This document shows positions 32,244 to 39,186 of a DNA stretch of 39,186 nt, one piece after another (the stretch's first letter is position 1; every line of letters begins with the position of its first letter). The stretch comes from a virus. Location of the stretch: positions 1 to 39,186 of IMG/VR virus record IMGVR_UViG_3300045988_093233; one strand, written 5' to 3'. Below the pieces are notes generated by a model. It made no database searches and was not told where the DNA came from. It saw nothing but the letters and a program-made list of their open reading frames with translations. The position numbers and the translations under genes were made by a program.

Positions 32244-32641
32244 GTGTAAATATAGTTTTGGTTTACTGTTTAGGGGTGTTCCTGTATAGTTTCCCCCGAT
32301 TCCGGCGCCGTCATATGCATCTGGCCGGCGTTCCTATATATGCCCTATGTCGCGTCTATATTGGTCGGGAATGCAGGATTCGAACCTGCTAAGCTATAAG
32401 CGTCAGATTTACAGTCTGATGTGCATCTCCCGCTGCACCGATTCCCGATATCTACGCGCGGCTGCGTGGATCCGGTAACGCGTCCTGCGCTCCGGGGTTG
32501 TTTGTTGCGGCCGTCATTCCCCCGATCGGTGACGCTGCGCTGTTCTATGTCATCCGCCCGCCTAGGGGGCGGCAATAACCGTTGCCCCCATTGCGGGGGC
32601 GTTGAAAGGAGGTCAAAAAACAATGAAAAACCTGTTTTCCC
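32244..32641 (-). ncRNA. GC-rich structured transcript (~190-nt leader, tRNA-Tyr, ~115-nt trailer)
   Basis: Bounded by an extended -10 promoter and a terminator. No credible ORF or RBS. Many G5/C5 runs form overlapping hairpins. Composition contrasts strongly with the rest of the genome. Confidence 0.45.
32362..32447 (-). tRNA. tRNA-Tyr: tRNA-Tyr (anticodon GTA), type II with long variable arm, encoded CCA
   Basis: Hand fold: acceptor CGGGAAT/ATTCCCG; D-stem GTGC/GCAC; anticodon arm TCAGA-CTGTAAA-TCTGA; 13-nt variable arm; T-arm GCAGG-TTCGAAT-CCTGC; A73; CCA. Total 86 nt. Confidence 0.85.
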
Positions 32642-33977: not shown

Positions 33978-34397
33978 ATGAAAATTATGCAAGAAAACGG
34001 AAAGATCGTTATGGACATTACAATCTCGCAACCTCAGAAGAACGGTGATGTATACAAATACATCACAAAGAAACGTTTGGGTGGAAGTGTTACCGAGGAC
34101 GAATTTCTCGGTCTCAATGCCCCGGATATTCTGGTCGAAATATCCATGCCAGAGCTTCAAGGTTCCGAAAAACAAATTGCATGGGCCGAAGACATCAGGA
34201 TGAATATGATTTACAATTTTATGCACGAAAAAATTGAGATGAATGGTTGGGTATCCATGTTAGATCAAGGAAAAGCAATGGGAATCAATACGTATCAGGA
34301 GTTGTTCGAAGCACTGATGAAAGCGAATTTTCCGAAGTTGCTGCAAGAGACAAAAGCAAAAGAGATCATAGAGAATAGATACGCAATAAGGTTTTAG
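33978..34397 (+). CDS. Hypothetical protein (139 aa) with a GSEKQIAWAEDIR motif
   Basis: AGGAGG lies 8 nt before ATG 33978. I could not assign a family. Confidence 0.6.
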   Translation: MKIMQENGKIVMDITISQPQKNGDVYKYITKKRLGGSVTEDEFLGLNAPDILVEISMPELQGSEKQIAWAEDIRMNMIYNFMHEKIEMNGWVSMLDQGKAMGINTYQELFEALMKANFPKLLQETKAKEIIENRYAIRF

Positions 34398-34405
34398 GTG
34401 GGAAA

Positions 34406-34621
34406 ATGAAAAAATATCATGTTGAATACGCAACACCGGAAATGGTAAAAGATCACGGTGGATTACACGATTTGAGTTGGGGAGATATTAGTGATGCGAT
34501 CGACGCTGAAAGCGAAGATGAGGCTATTGAATTAGCGAAGCAGTCACTAATTGATGATGGATATGAAGAGAATATCGAAGATGTTTATTTTCGAGCAAAA
34601 ACTATTGACAAAATTTATTGA
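34406..34621 (+). CDS. Small acidic protein (71 aa)
   Basis: D/E-rich (DAIDAESEDEAIELAKQSLIDDGYEENIEDV). Last ORF of the cassette. Confidence 0.6.
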   Translation: MKKYHVEYATPEMVKDHGGLHDLSWGDISDAIDAESEDEAIELAKQSLIDDGYEENIEDVYFRAKTIDKIY

Positions 34622-34633
34622 AAATGATATTGT
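34605..34633 (+). promoter_or_regulatory. Promoter of the three-module RNA
   Basis: TTGACA (34605-34610), 17-nt spacer, TATTGT (34628-34633). The predicted start is about 34640, at the first module. Confidence 0.55.
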
Positions 34634-34638
34634 GATAG

Positions 34639-34669
34639 TGTCATACCATGCAGCGTTGTGAGTAGAAAC
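34639..34669 (+). repeat. Module 1 (N12 = TACCATGCAGCG)
   Basis: Exact TGTCA and TTGTGAGTAGAAAC flanks. Confidence 0.9.
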
Positions 34670-34696
34670 ATGTTCAATATTTTATGTATTGCAAGA

Positions 34697-34727
34697 TGTC
34701 ATGTCGAAAGGCATTGTGAGTAGAAAC
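34697..34727 (+). repeat. Module 2 (N12 = TGTCGAAAGGCA, self-complementary with GAAA loop)
   Basis: Exact TGTCA and TTGTGAGTAGAAAC flanks. Confidence 0.9.
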
Positions 34728-34758
34728 TTGTTATGATTTTATTGAAATCATAAATGAC

Positions 34759-34789
34759 TGTCACGCTGTATGGTATTGTGAGTAGAAAC
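34759..34789 (+). repeat. Module 3 (N12 = CGCTGTATGGTA, reverse complement of module 1's N12 with one G-U)
   Basis: Exact TGTCA and TTGTGAGTAGAAAC flanks. Confidence 0.9.
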
Positions 34790-34813
34790 ATTTCTTGATA
34801 AAGTATCTACAAA

Positions 34814-34846
34814 GAAAAAAGCAAGGCATAACACCTTGCTTTTTTC
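34814..34846. terminator. Bidirectional terminator shared by the ncRNA and the convergent early operon
   Basis: AAAAAA-GCAAGG-cataaca-CCTTGC-TTTTTT. Confidence 0.8.
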
Positions 34847-35272
34847 TTATAGATTATTTACCTTGTAATCGGCGATTTTACGGAGTTTTTTTCTCAACTT
34901 GCTCAATCTGTCATAGGTTGCAGTTCTGTCGTATCCTAGGGCGCTTTTGAGGTATTCGAAGTTCTTCGTTCCCTTCTGCTGCGCGATGTACTGGATCATC
35001 AGCAGTTCGTCTGCATCTAAGGCAGCTGTCAGATTTTTATAGGCGTTCAGATATTCTTGGTATTCTCTGATCTCCCAGTCGATTTTTTCCCTTCGCTGCG
35101 CTTTTTGCACTGTCGGGTCCGATATTCCGCTGCCGCGAACATGGGAATAGTCCATGCCGCCGGAATCGGCTGCAGCTTCTTTTTCGGCGATCAGTTCCGC
35201 CAGTATTCTGACGTTTTTGTCATAGTCTGATAGGAACCGGTCAACGTCGAAGTTATAGTATTTTTCTACCAT
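34847..35272 (-). CDS. ArpU/RinA-type late transcription activator (sigma region-4-like)
   Basis: Last gene of the early operon. C-terminal ELLMIQYIAQQKG...LGYDRTATYDRLSKLRKKL is an HTH-like pattern. GAGGAG RBS before ATG 35272. Confidence 0.5.
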   Translation of the reverse strand: MVEKYYNFDVDRFLSDYDKNVRILAELIAEKEAAADSGGMDYSHVRGSGISDPTVQKAQRREKIDWEIREYQEYLNAYKNLTAALDADELLMIQYIAQQKGTKNFEYLKSALGYDRTATYDRLSKLRKKLRKIADYKVNNL

Positions 35273-38777: not shown

Positions 38778-39186
38778 CTACACCTCAATACCTGTAATTT
38801 CCTTGAATATCTTTGCATCAAAATTTGGAATATCTTGTACGATTTTTTTAGCCTCTTCCGACATCTCTCCCCACCAATTCGCCCATGCTTCTTTCATAGT
38901 GTATTCTTTCAGATAACCACAAATCATTTCTTTTTCTGGGTCAGCTTTCTTTTCTTCTTCTGTGTATGGAATCCATTCTGTCAGCATGAACGGAGCACTG
39001 CATAATGCTTCATAGTATCTGCTTCTGTAGAAATCTAGCAGGCTCATTCCGGACGGTCGATTGAATATTCTAATATTCATATCCGGCTCGGTACAAAACA
39101 CACCGTTAGAATCGTTGCCTGTGTTCCCGTAGCCTGTGTTCCTGTAGCCTGTGTTACAGTCGCCTGTGTTCCTGTAGCCTGTGTTA
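38778..39186 (-). CDS. C-terminal part of the junction-spanning NTGxx pentapeptide-repeat protein
   Basis: The frame is open to the window end (…NTGYRNTGDCNTGYRNTGYGNTGNDSNGVFCTEPD…). It is in frame with 1..382 once the 41-bp overlap is removed, giving 750 nt in total. Confidence 0.75.
   Translation of the reverse strand, partial: NTGYRNTGDCNTGYRNTGYGNTGNDSNGVFCTEPDMNIRIFNRPSGMSLLDFYRSRYYEALCSAPFMLTEWIPYTEEEKKADPEKEMICGYLKEYTMKEAWANWWGEMSEEAKKIVQDIPNFDAKIFKEITGIEV
39146..39186. repeat. Terminal direct overlap, copy 2 (identical to 1..41)
   Basis: Exact 41-nt identity with the window start. Confidence 0.9.

Follow-up and report, generated by a model that had tools for sequence, protein, structure and literature searches.

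RNA anti-CRISPRs, virus-encoded RNAs directed against CRISPR immunity, were described only in 2023, and existing catalogues list them chiefly as solitary repeats or as mini-arrays known by their guide-like spacers. Racrs are viral solitary repeat units, such as RacrIF1 and RacrIC1, that mimic CRISPR repeats and compete for the CRISPR-associated (Cas) proteins; RacrIC1, a type I-C mimic, has been validated (Camara-Wilpert et al., Nature 2023, PMC10651486). The Racr census left out repeat matches that were associated with other repeats (PMC10651486). Cracr arrays are viral mini-arrays of pseudo-repeats and pseudo-spacers, the short pseudo-spacers of which partly match host cas or toxin promoters, and nine two-spacer type I-C Cracr arrays have been reported (Liu et al., bioRxiv 10.1101/2024.10.29.618823). 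Here we describe a predicted non-coding RNA gene of about 205 nucleotides (nt) on the plus strand of IMG/VR record IMGVR_UViG_3300045988_093233, a temperate gut phage; the whole stretch of 39,186 nt is called the window below. The RNA carries three repeat-like modules, and elements of this kind would have been missed by the Racr census because repeats lying near other repeats were excluded from it. The comparisons reported below suggest that the element is probably a multivalent type I-C repeat decoy, that is, an RNA anti-CRISPR of the Racr type.

Anatomy of the locus and its match to type I-C repeats

The three modules lie between a promoter and a terminator and have the formula TGTCA-N12-TTGTGAGTAGAAAC, with GTCA-N12-TTGTGAGTAGAAAC as the inner part. 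The copies occupy 34639-34669, 34697-34727 and 34759-34789, all inside 151 nt, and follow one another with periods of 58 and 62 nt. The exact 14-mer TTGTGAGTAGAAAC has three sites in the 39-kb window, all of them in modules, and when three mismatches are allowed the number of matches in the window (6, with 4.3 expected) is at chance level. The N12 segments of modules 1 and 3 are reverse complements of each other but for one position, which makes a G·U pair on the plus strand; with its flanks, the inverted repeat (34643-34656 and 34763-34776) is 14 nt long and shows 93% complementarity. The N12 segment of module 2, UGUC-GAAA-GGCA, is self-complementary. The module coordinates, the periods and the complementarity of the N12 segments were reported in an initial annotation made from the sequence by a model, and a second reading of the sequence gave the same coordinates, sequences, periods and complementarities. 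The parts of the locus are as follows.

34605..34633, plus strand: sigma-70-type promoter (-35 TTGACA at 34605-34610, 17-nt spacer, extended -10 TG at 34625-34626, -10 TATTGT at 34628-34633)
34640..34669, plus strand: module 1, or pseudo-repeat 1 (GTC, 5' arm A at 34643-34656, extra U at 34657, handle GTGAGTAGAAAC at 34658-34669)
34670..34697, plus strand: psiS1, inter-module segment of 28 nt (own hairpin CAAUAU/GUAUUG at 34675-34691)
34698..34727, plus strand: module 2, or pseudo-repeat 2 (GTC, 5-bp stem AUGUC/GGCAU with GAAA loop at 34701-34714, extra U at 34715, handle GTGAGTAGAAAC at 34716-34727)
34728..34759, plus strand: psiS2, inter-module segment of 32 nt (A/U-rich hairpin of 9-10 bp at 34731-34753)
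34760..34789, plus strand: module 3, or pseudo-repeat 3 (GTC, 3' arm A' at 34763-34776, which pairs with arm A, extra U at 34777, handle GTGAGTAGAAAC at 34778-34789)
34782..34810, plus strand: predicted handle:anti-handle hairpin (the last 8 nt of the third handle, GUAGAAAC at 34782-34789, paired with the downstream GUAUCUAC at 34803-34810)
34812..34848, both strands: bidirectional intrinsic terminator (perfect 15-bp stem, A and T runs on both sides), common to this gene and a convergent minus-strand operon

The near-consensus promoter proposed in the initial annotation, TTGACA-17-TATTGT, was recovered with an in silico score of 10/12 plus the TG. Its -10 element ends about 6 nt 5' of module 1, and the predicted transcription start is at about 34639-34641. 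The -35 element, the TG and the -10 element are kept in the divergent relatives that we designate L122, L259, L260 and L276 (TTGACA-17-TATTAT) despite a different spacer sequence. The strong terminator that was likewise proposed has a perfect 15-bp stem, and it can act in both directions because A and T runs flank the stem. The same annotation gave no open reading frame (ORF) in the gap; we found none of at least 60 codons there, and the overlapping ORFs (30-51 codons) are only mechanical. On the minus strand of the same region (34679-34764), two promoter-like matches, GTGACA-17-TAAAAT and TCGACA-17-TAAAAT, each scored 10/12 and use as the -35 element the complement of the TGTCA of the modules. 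Antisense transcription may start from these two sites; promoter-like matches in the region overall are not enriched (8 found, with 7.5 expected from shuffled sequences).

Comparison of the 14-mer with host CRISPR repeats, a check suggested along with the initial annotation, revealed a close match to type I-C. We scanned one genome per bacterial species for TGAGTWGAAAC occurring twice within 40-68 nt and obtained at least 120 loci. Among the matches listed, nearly all are genuine CRISPR arrays that hold as many as 123 repeats at periods of 65-68 nt, and their repeats read GTC-stem-loop-stem-G-TGAGT(A/T)GAAAC; the taxa that carry them in this set include Lachnospiraceae, uncultured Clostridia, Monoglobus, Oscillospiraceae, Ruminococcus, Akkermansia and Pasteurellaceae. 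The 12-nt module tail GTGAGTAGAAAC is identical to the 3' handle of the type I-C repeat, including the G that precedes the Cas5c cut site. Because of this match, the 12-nt GUGAGUAGAAAC can be read as the G before the Cas5c cut followed by the 11-nt 5' handle of a mature type I-C CRISPR RNA (crRNA). The closest repeat among the matches listed, GTCATGCCTCGCAAGAGGCATGTGAGTAGAAAC of Lachnospiraceae UMGS1297 (URSA01000014.1), lies directly downstream of genes for Cas3, Cas5c, Cas8c/Csd1, Cas7/Csd2, Cas4 and Cas1c, all scored by NCBIfam models, and repeats ending in ...GCGTGAGTTGAAAC are labelled type I-C in the supplementary repeat table of the Racr study (PMC10651486). Module 2, GTCATGTCGAAAGGCATTGTGAGTAGAAAC, agrees with the UMGS1297 repeat at 29 of the 30 aligned bases in the same hairpin register, the differences being a shorter stem, a GAAA loop and one inserted U. 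Module 1 agrees with the host repeat GTCACACCTCGCAGGAGGTGTGTGAGTAGAAAC at 26 of 30 aligned bases. The handles occur in an A-type and a T-type, and both are present among the host repeat families.

The modules thus share with the bona fide repeats of Lachnospiraceae and Clostridia the 5' GTC, the first 4-5 bp of the stem, the G before the cut, the identical 11-nt handle and its A/T polymorphism, but they differ in length (30-31 nt as against 33 nt), in a stem two to three bp shorter, in a tetraloop in place of the loop and in an extra nucleotide before the G|U cut site. In the hosts, the helix runs uninterrupted up to the cut site in 42 of 50 repeat families, with a median of 8 bp, and the other eight are artefacts of a truncated consensus. 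In the phage modules, the stem has 5 bp and one unpaired nucleotide, usually U and in three first modules A, separates it from the G|U junction; the extra nucleotide and the miniaturised stem are seen in every module of every lineage. Unlike a bona fide type I-C array, the element is without cas genes, a leader or diverse spacers. The inner 12 nt differ from module to module, whereas a true array has identical repeats of 32-33 nt with a 7-8-bp stem reaching the cut site. Between the modules lie segments of 28 and 32 nt that can pair with themselves and are kept from variant to variant, whereas true spacers are unique and about 33-36 nt long.

What Cas5c recognises is above all the cut site, the base of the stem and the overhang downstream of the cut, with the loop and the 5' overhang dispensable, and mutations close to the cut site inhibit processing (PMC8524198). 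In the phage RNA, the handle of every intact module is invariant across the lineages and has a helix abutting it, and the loops vary (GAAA, UUAC, GAAAA or a 100-nt multi-branch insert). At the level of sequence, this pattern of conservation mirrors the Cas5c recognition determinants. The modules would therefore retain the determinants for binding of Cas5c and Cascade, while the altered junction could impair cleavage. The RNA would then amount to a natural dissection of type I-C recognition, in which the handle and the stem-end junction are kept and the rest is replaced, and the one-nucleotide insertion at the cut site offers a hypothesis for how an uncleavable substrate is made.

Predicted fold and natural variants of the RNA

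Homologues were collected from IMG/VR, ENA and Logan assemblies by means of the DNA motif and of the gene for a 71-residue protein that always precedes the RNA. GenBank phages contained no homologue of the locus, and a loose IMG/VR scan for GTAGAAAC occurring three times returned mostly coding repeats and unrelated arrays. Rfam searches at gathering and permissive thresholds found only terminator look-alikes at the RNA locus, and no family.

The plus-strand RNA is predicted to fold with -67.3 kcal/mol (z = -6.0 relative to shuffled sequences), and the minus strand with -53.6 kcal/mol (z = -5.7). The predicted architecture is identical in every full-length variant. Arm A of the first module pairs with arm A' of the last to form a closing helix, inside which there is one hairpin for each inter-module segment and one for each internal module, and 3' of which the handle:anti-handle hairpin and then the terminator follow. 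The initial annotation had described three hairpin modules; this holds for module 2, which forms a local hairpin, and it does not hold for modules 1 and 3, which pair with each other and close the multi-branched fold. At one end of the A:A' duplex stand the GUC of module 1 and the U-G|UGAGUAGAAAC of module 3, and at the other end stand the GUC of module 3 and the U-G|UGAGUAGAAAC of module 1. Because of these flanks, a single duplex offers two repeat-like junctions, each consisting of a helix end plus a handle.

The pairing of the closing helix is kept across the related phages, as the initial annotation would have it. Over 16 pairs in five variants, the plus-strand RNA has one mismatch and seven G·U pairs, whereas the minus-strand RNA has seven mismatches; one double change, from U-A to C-G, was found in L122, and in L001 a C-to-U change in arm A gives a U·G pair. 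RNAalifold, applied to a MAFFT alignment of all variants, returned the same helices. Because MAFFT had placed the first module of L122 and L259 out of register, the closing helix was counted with a register-correct script. In the handle:anti-handle hairpin, an A-U pair changes to U-A along with the handle type, and GUAGAAAC/GUAUCUAC becomes GUUGAAAC/GUAUCAAC in L122. The psiS1 hairpin is kept through changes from U·G to C-G and from A-U to G·U in L259 and L122, and the stem of module 2 appears in relatives as UGCC/GGCA with a UUAC or GAAAA loop. Together, these changes are suggestive of selection on the structure of the plus-strand RNA, with covariation that is not statistically strong given the few independent lineages. 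The inter-module segments, being hairpins without a detectable target in the host loci and phage collections searched, look structural rather than guide-like.

Relatives have two to four modules. L122 and L257 carry the T-type handle GUGAGUUGAAAC in both intact modules, with a module-2 hairpin UGCC-UUAC-GGCA and a decayed handle in module 1, and in L276 the handle is of the A-type in module 1 and of the T-type in modules 2 and 3. Four modules are present in L259; the additional one, GTCGCACC-GAAA-GGTGC-T-GTGAGTAGAAAC, agrees with a repeat of Lachnospiraceae SUG698 at 29 of 30 bases and thus follows a host stem variant other than that of module 2. The phage RNA therefore varies along the same axes as the host repeats, namely the stem sequence and the A/T position of the handle, since both handle types occur in host families. 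In L276 (ERZ24911429), the tail AATTTCTACTGTCTTAGATATAAAGTATCAAC after the last module complements both handle types found there (TTTCTAC to GTAGAAA, and GTATCAAC to GTTGAAAC), which hints at the sequence level that anti-handles track handle types.

Other parts of the element are less constant. The TGTCA that the initial annotation found to be exact in all three modules is not strictly conserved in relatives, where it reads TGTTA, TGCA, GCCA or GTCG. The perfect hairpin that the annotation placed in the second spacer (34731-34753) is present in the window; it is broken by a C-to-A change in five independent contigs of the L261 type, and L259 has a different hairpin, GGAAUU/AAUUCC, instead. The first 19 nt of psiS1, ATGTTYAATATTTTATGTA, are conserved in three lineages (the window, L260 and L276) though the downstream sequence differs, and seed positions 1, 3 and 4 of psiS1 vary among lineages (ATGTTC, TTGTTC and GTAATC). 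L121 (IMGVR_UViG_3300045988_112715) has lost module 2 and retained modules 1 and 3 with their mutual pairing. In its segment equivalent to window positions 34695-34744, A stands in place of each of the 11 G residues found between 34695 and 34730. Of the 23 differences in a 551-nt block, 12 are G-to-A, and exactly module 2 is erased, with the flanks almost intact and without a sequence-context preference. In this one contig, the cluster looks like a single focal event of minus-strand cytosine deamination or an assembly artefact. L264 (a contig of ERR13995750) bears a natural deletion that fuses the handle of module 2 to the tail following module 3, so that psiS2 and module 3 are gone and arm A is unpaired. 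The deletion, as read from the sequence of this contig, is evidence that the direct handle repeats recombine and in this way reshape the element.

The distribution of the RNA is that of a cargo. The block from 34335 to 34851 is 99.4% identical between the window and L001, as against 88-94% for the flanks, and homology stops exactly after the terminator. In four related phages (L125, L126, L127 and L129), this plus-strand accessory cassette holds other genes and ends in the same terminator, and the RNA is missing. Because relatives exchange the content of the cassette in this way, we regard the RNA and the two genes upstream of it as exchangeable hot-spot cargo, as is typical of anti-defence loci.

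Decoy and guide readings of the element

The leading guess of the initial annotation, a class 1 CRISPR-repeat mimic acting as an RNA anti-CRISPR, is strengthened by the near base-for-base match to type I-C repeats, by variants that appear to track host repeats, by plus-strand covariation and by cargo behaviour. We infer that the RNA would be transcribed from its strong promoter and, as a competitor of host pre-crRNA and crRNA, would bind Cas5c and probably also Cas7 and Cas8c; the resulting unproductive Cas complexes would lower type I-C interference against the phage. The modules would keep what Cas5c and Cascade read, that is, the 5' GUC, a helix ending at the cut site, the G before the cut and the 11-nt handle UGAGUAGAAAC, and the distal stem and loop of the host repeat would have been shrunk or replaced. 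Module 2 would mimic the repeat by its local 5-bp hairpin, and modules 1 and 3 would do so jointly by the 14-16-bp duplex that closes the whole RNA. Different modules may be tuned to different host repeat variants.

In several respects, this is what is known of Racrs. Like them, the RNA is phage-encoded, no cas genes are seen with it, it lies just downstream of a promoter (within the 250 bp used to define Racrs), it mimics host repeats in sequence and fold, and it resides in an accessory, anti-defence-like region; the mechanism expected of this RNA would likewise be competition for Cas proteins and the formation of aberrant complexes. It differs from Racrs in having three modules (two to four in relatives) on one structured transcript, miniaturised hairpins (5 bp as against about 8) with an added cut-site nucleotide, two mimics formed in trans by pairing of the first and last modules, and a downstream anti-handle that pairs with the last handle. 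With Cracr arrays it shares the layout of a viral pseudo-repeat/pseudo-spacer array, shortened pseudo-spacers and units that would address different host CRISPR variants (multiplexing). Unlike those of Cracr arrays, its pseudo-spacers are hairpins, and in the host loci covered no complementarity was found between them and a CreR/CreA spacer or the promoter of a host cas or toxin gene. The multiplexing would reside in the stem and handle of the repeat, and not in the spacer as in Cracr arrays. The element is not categorically new, Racrs and Cracr arrays being already known; it is new in four respects, namely the multi-module folded scaffold, the miniaturised bulged hairpins, the split mimic paired in trans and the covarying anti-handle.

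Several observations weigh against the decoy interpretation. The element is not a solitary repeat and is thus outside the operational Racr definition. No single module is essential, since variants have lost module 2 (L121) or module 3 (L264), and the third handle is predicted to be partly sequestered by the anti-handle. Given stems of 5 bp, where the host median is 8, and the extra nucleotide at the cut site, Cas5c might not bind the modules at all. The apparent match to the host subtype comes from metagenome-assembled genomes of gut Lachnospiraceae, Clostridia and Ruminococcus with matching repeats, and among about 2,000 spacers from the sampled type I-C arrays none matched the phage. Three further points fit a guide-type RNA: psiS1, at 28 nt, is one 6-nt Cas7 step below the host spacers of about 34 nt; its first 19 nt are conserved across lineages; and other viral type I-C mini-arrays of the same metagenome have 27-nt pseudo-spacers.

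The principal alternative, then, is that the element is a Cracr array. Cas5c would process the transcript into two or three crRNA-like RNAs carrying psiS1, psiS2 and the tail after module 3, and partial matches of these pseudo-spacers to the promoter of host cas genes or of a CRISPR-guarding toxin would let a reprogrammed Cascade silence immunity while host crRNAs are competed off. The order pseudo-repeat, pseudo-spacer, pseudo-repeat on a virus and outside a CRISPR-Cas locus, with segments of 28 and 32 nt, is what this would require, and a psiS1 about 6 nt shorter than host spacers with a start kept in three lineages, together with the pseudo-spacer length of the neighbouring viral mini-arrays, points the same way. 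A guide-target seed search, with a protospacer-adjacent motif (PAM) and with every sixth position ignored, remained at chance level in 120 host loci, in the related phages and in the window; no PAM-flanked seed of at least 9 nt rose above chance in 0.82 Mb of host type I-C loci, a weak test in that the true host and its cas promoter region are not among them. The clustered weak matches that were seen (L223) sit within the cas1 coding sequence, the seed positions of psiS1 differ between lineages, and all inter-module segments fold as hairpins that are kept through wobble or alternative pairs, psiS2 varying as a structure and not as a sequence. We therefore favour the decoy over the Cracr array, which we consider rather unlikely though still a serious competitor; both would be RNA anti-CRISPRs that act through repeat mimicry. 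Far less probable is a functional mini-CRISPR array by which the phage borrows the type I-C Cas proteins of its host and directs the two inter-module segments at competing phages or plasmids. Viral mini-arrays of this kind are known, and the repeat-spacer-repeat layout and the host-compatible handle would suit one, but the would-be spacers, 28 and 32 nt long, can pair with themselves and are kept among variants where diversity would be expected, and in the repeats the stem is shortened and the cut site has gained a nucleotide. The segments matched nothing in the related phages, in the window or in GenBank phages (best E-values 2-5), and an exact-match scan of IMG/VR gave chance 19-mers in AT-rich giant-virus bins without a TTC PAM. 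The related suggestion of the initial annotation, that the 12-nt segments are guides covering both strands of one site, found no support either.

The three direct 14-mers and the long-range inverted repeat could instead mark an element acting as DNA, whether as iterons or operators bound by a protein, as a site of replication or packaging, or as the homology by which to recombine into host CRISPR arrays. The two minus-strand promoter-like matches that take TGACA, the complement of TGTCA, as their -35 element would be consistent with this, as would L264, an actual recombination between handles. We regard this reading as highly improbable. Substitutions limited to G·U favour pairing in the plus-strand RNA (one mismatch as against seven), the promoter-like matches are at shuffle expectation, TGTCA is not conserved, and an optional cargo that is absent from close relatives is not an essential origin or packaging site. 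The near-identity with type I-C repeats would be left unexplained save by array-directed recombination, and the phage has its own integrase. An origin, a packaging site and the DNA iterons named as an alternative in the initial annotation were rejected on these grounds, the optional cargo, the strand-specific G·U pattern and the repeat match. That the locus is a non-functional remnant, a captured host CRISPR array decaying in the phage, is the least probable of these readings. Loss or degeneration of modules (module 2 in L121, module 1 in L122 and the deletion in L264) is what decay would produce, but the handles are exactly conserved, the promoter and terminator are kept, the helices show compensatory changes, the block is 99.4% identical between flanks of 88-94%, and the miniaturised stem and extra nucleotide shared by every module of every lineage look designed. 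A type III antitoxin of the ToxI kind, or a phage pseudo-ToxI, was rejected because no toxin gene lies downstream; the next gene is convergent and beyond the terminator, and unrelated segments separate the modules.

If the decoy interpretation is extended to all four of the new features, the element would be a single folded scaffold RNA displaying two to four cleavage-resistant type I-C repeat mimics, and it would represent a distinct architectural class. As a whole, we put this forward tentatively and with some doubt. The first and last modules, as modelled, may create two Cas5c-binding junctions in trans at the ends of the 14-16-bp duplex. The nucleotide inserted at every cut site may turn the modules into dead-end substrates. 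Tuning of the modules to host repeat variants, in stem and handle, may allow one RNA to disarm several host strains. Lastly, the conserved anti-handle may gate the last module or base-pair with the handles of host crRNAs.

Although the element is a near-exact mimic of a type I-C repeat, it would slip past the screens for solitary repeats and for guide-like spacers alike, which suggests that multi-module, structurally disguised repeat mimics are under-counted. The question bears on the phages of abundant gut Clostridia and Lachnospiraceae, in which type I-C systems are frequent and little is known of anti-CRISPR mechanisms. Compact multivalent decoys could also serve as off-switches for type I-C genome-editing tools.

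Phage genome, neighbouring genes and other repeat arrays

With its overlapping ends (1-25 equals 39144-39170), the window represents a complete phage genome, circularly permuted and about 39 kb long. Its genes include those for a tyrosine integrase, a helix-turn-helix (HTH) regulator, a terminase, a portal protein, a tape-measure protein, a 1,456-residue tail protein, a CHAP lysin and a holin. A survey of the window ORFs, which was not exhaustive, showed no cas genes. The phage is regarded as temperate because it has the integrase and the HTH regulator, and from its lysis genes the host is presumably Gram-positive. Gut samples that served as sources include ERR527078, SRR33520646 and DRR542317, the first of which belongs to PRJEB6337, a human gut study. 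The integrase and all copies found occur only on free metagenomic phage contigs of about 39 kb.

Two genes travel with the RNA.

33978..34621, plus strand: two co-travelling upstream genes, encoding a protein of 139 residues (33978-34397) and an acidic protein of 71 residues (34406-34621)

The last part of the second gene overlaps with the RNA promoter. When both proteins were searched by sequence in Pfam, PHROGs and PDB, nothing informative was returned, and a confident AlphaFold model of the 71-residue protein, with a predicted local distance difference test score of 80, had no significant fold match. In L259 (2501-2875), L260 (2221-2595) and L276 (84-431), the acidic domain forms a fusion with some 50 N-terminal residues that give weak matches to ribbon-helix-helix, NikA or TacA-like proteins. 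The fusion thus weakly suggests a putative DNA-binding module joined to a small acidic protein just 5' of the repeat-mimic RNA. A 60-residue cassette protein has a weak RHH_1 match. The neighbouring operon, described in the initial annotation as acr-aca-like, gave only weak ribbon-helix-helix signals, and that label is no more than a possible one.

Simpler repeat arrays were found on other contigs. Three viral contigs of the same metagenome carry type I-C mini-arrays, at 8339-8408 in L271, at 2343-2414 in L272 and on the minus strand at 4609-4680 in L273. Each consists of two full-length repeat hairpins with the handle GTGAGTTGAAAC and a 27-nt segment between them, and in L272 and L273 a TTGAC...TATAGT promoter stands directly 5' of the mini-array. 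They resemble the window element in the handle family GTGAGTTGAAAC, in the order of a promoter followed by pseudo-repeats (two there) and in an inter-repeat segment of about 27 nt, but they keep full-length, self-pairing repeat hairpins without extra nucleotides, and they are without a long-range closing helix or an anti-handle. From their sequences, they are candidates for ordinary Racr or Cracr elements.

A contig of Lachnospiraceae MGBC000115 (L189, 7145-7250) has two degenerate repeats with the handles GTGGGTAGAAAT and ATGAGTAGAAAT, 35 nt apart and about 3.3 kb from the main type I-C array. In this pair we may have a CreR/CreA-type mini-array with a regulatory role in the host; the spacer in it bears no resemblance to the phage segments. 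Many IMG/VR contigs (L008, L023, L024, L026, L039, L053, L061, L072, L074, L075, L077, L093, L103 and L109) contain arrays with a period of 66 and a repeat ending in ...TTGTATTAGCCTTTAGTTTGAAAGGTAGAAAC, preceded by a degenerate first unit, CATTTTATGCTCTTTGGTTGAAAGGTAGAAAC. Judged by sequence, these arrays are a recurrent virus-borne CRISPR-like family of unassigned type.

ARAGORN listed no tRNA in the window, and an Rfam search returned a full-length tRNA match on the minus strand at 32365-32447, with 48 bits, a long variable arm and the anticodon loop CUGUAAA, which corresponds to GUA (Tyr). This segment may represent a tRNA-Tyr gene of the phage or else belong to the attachment site.

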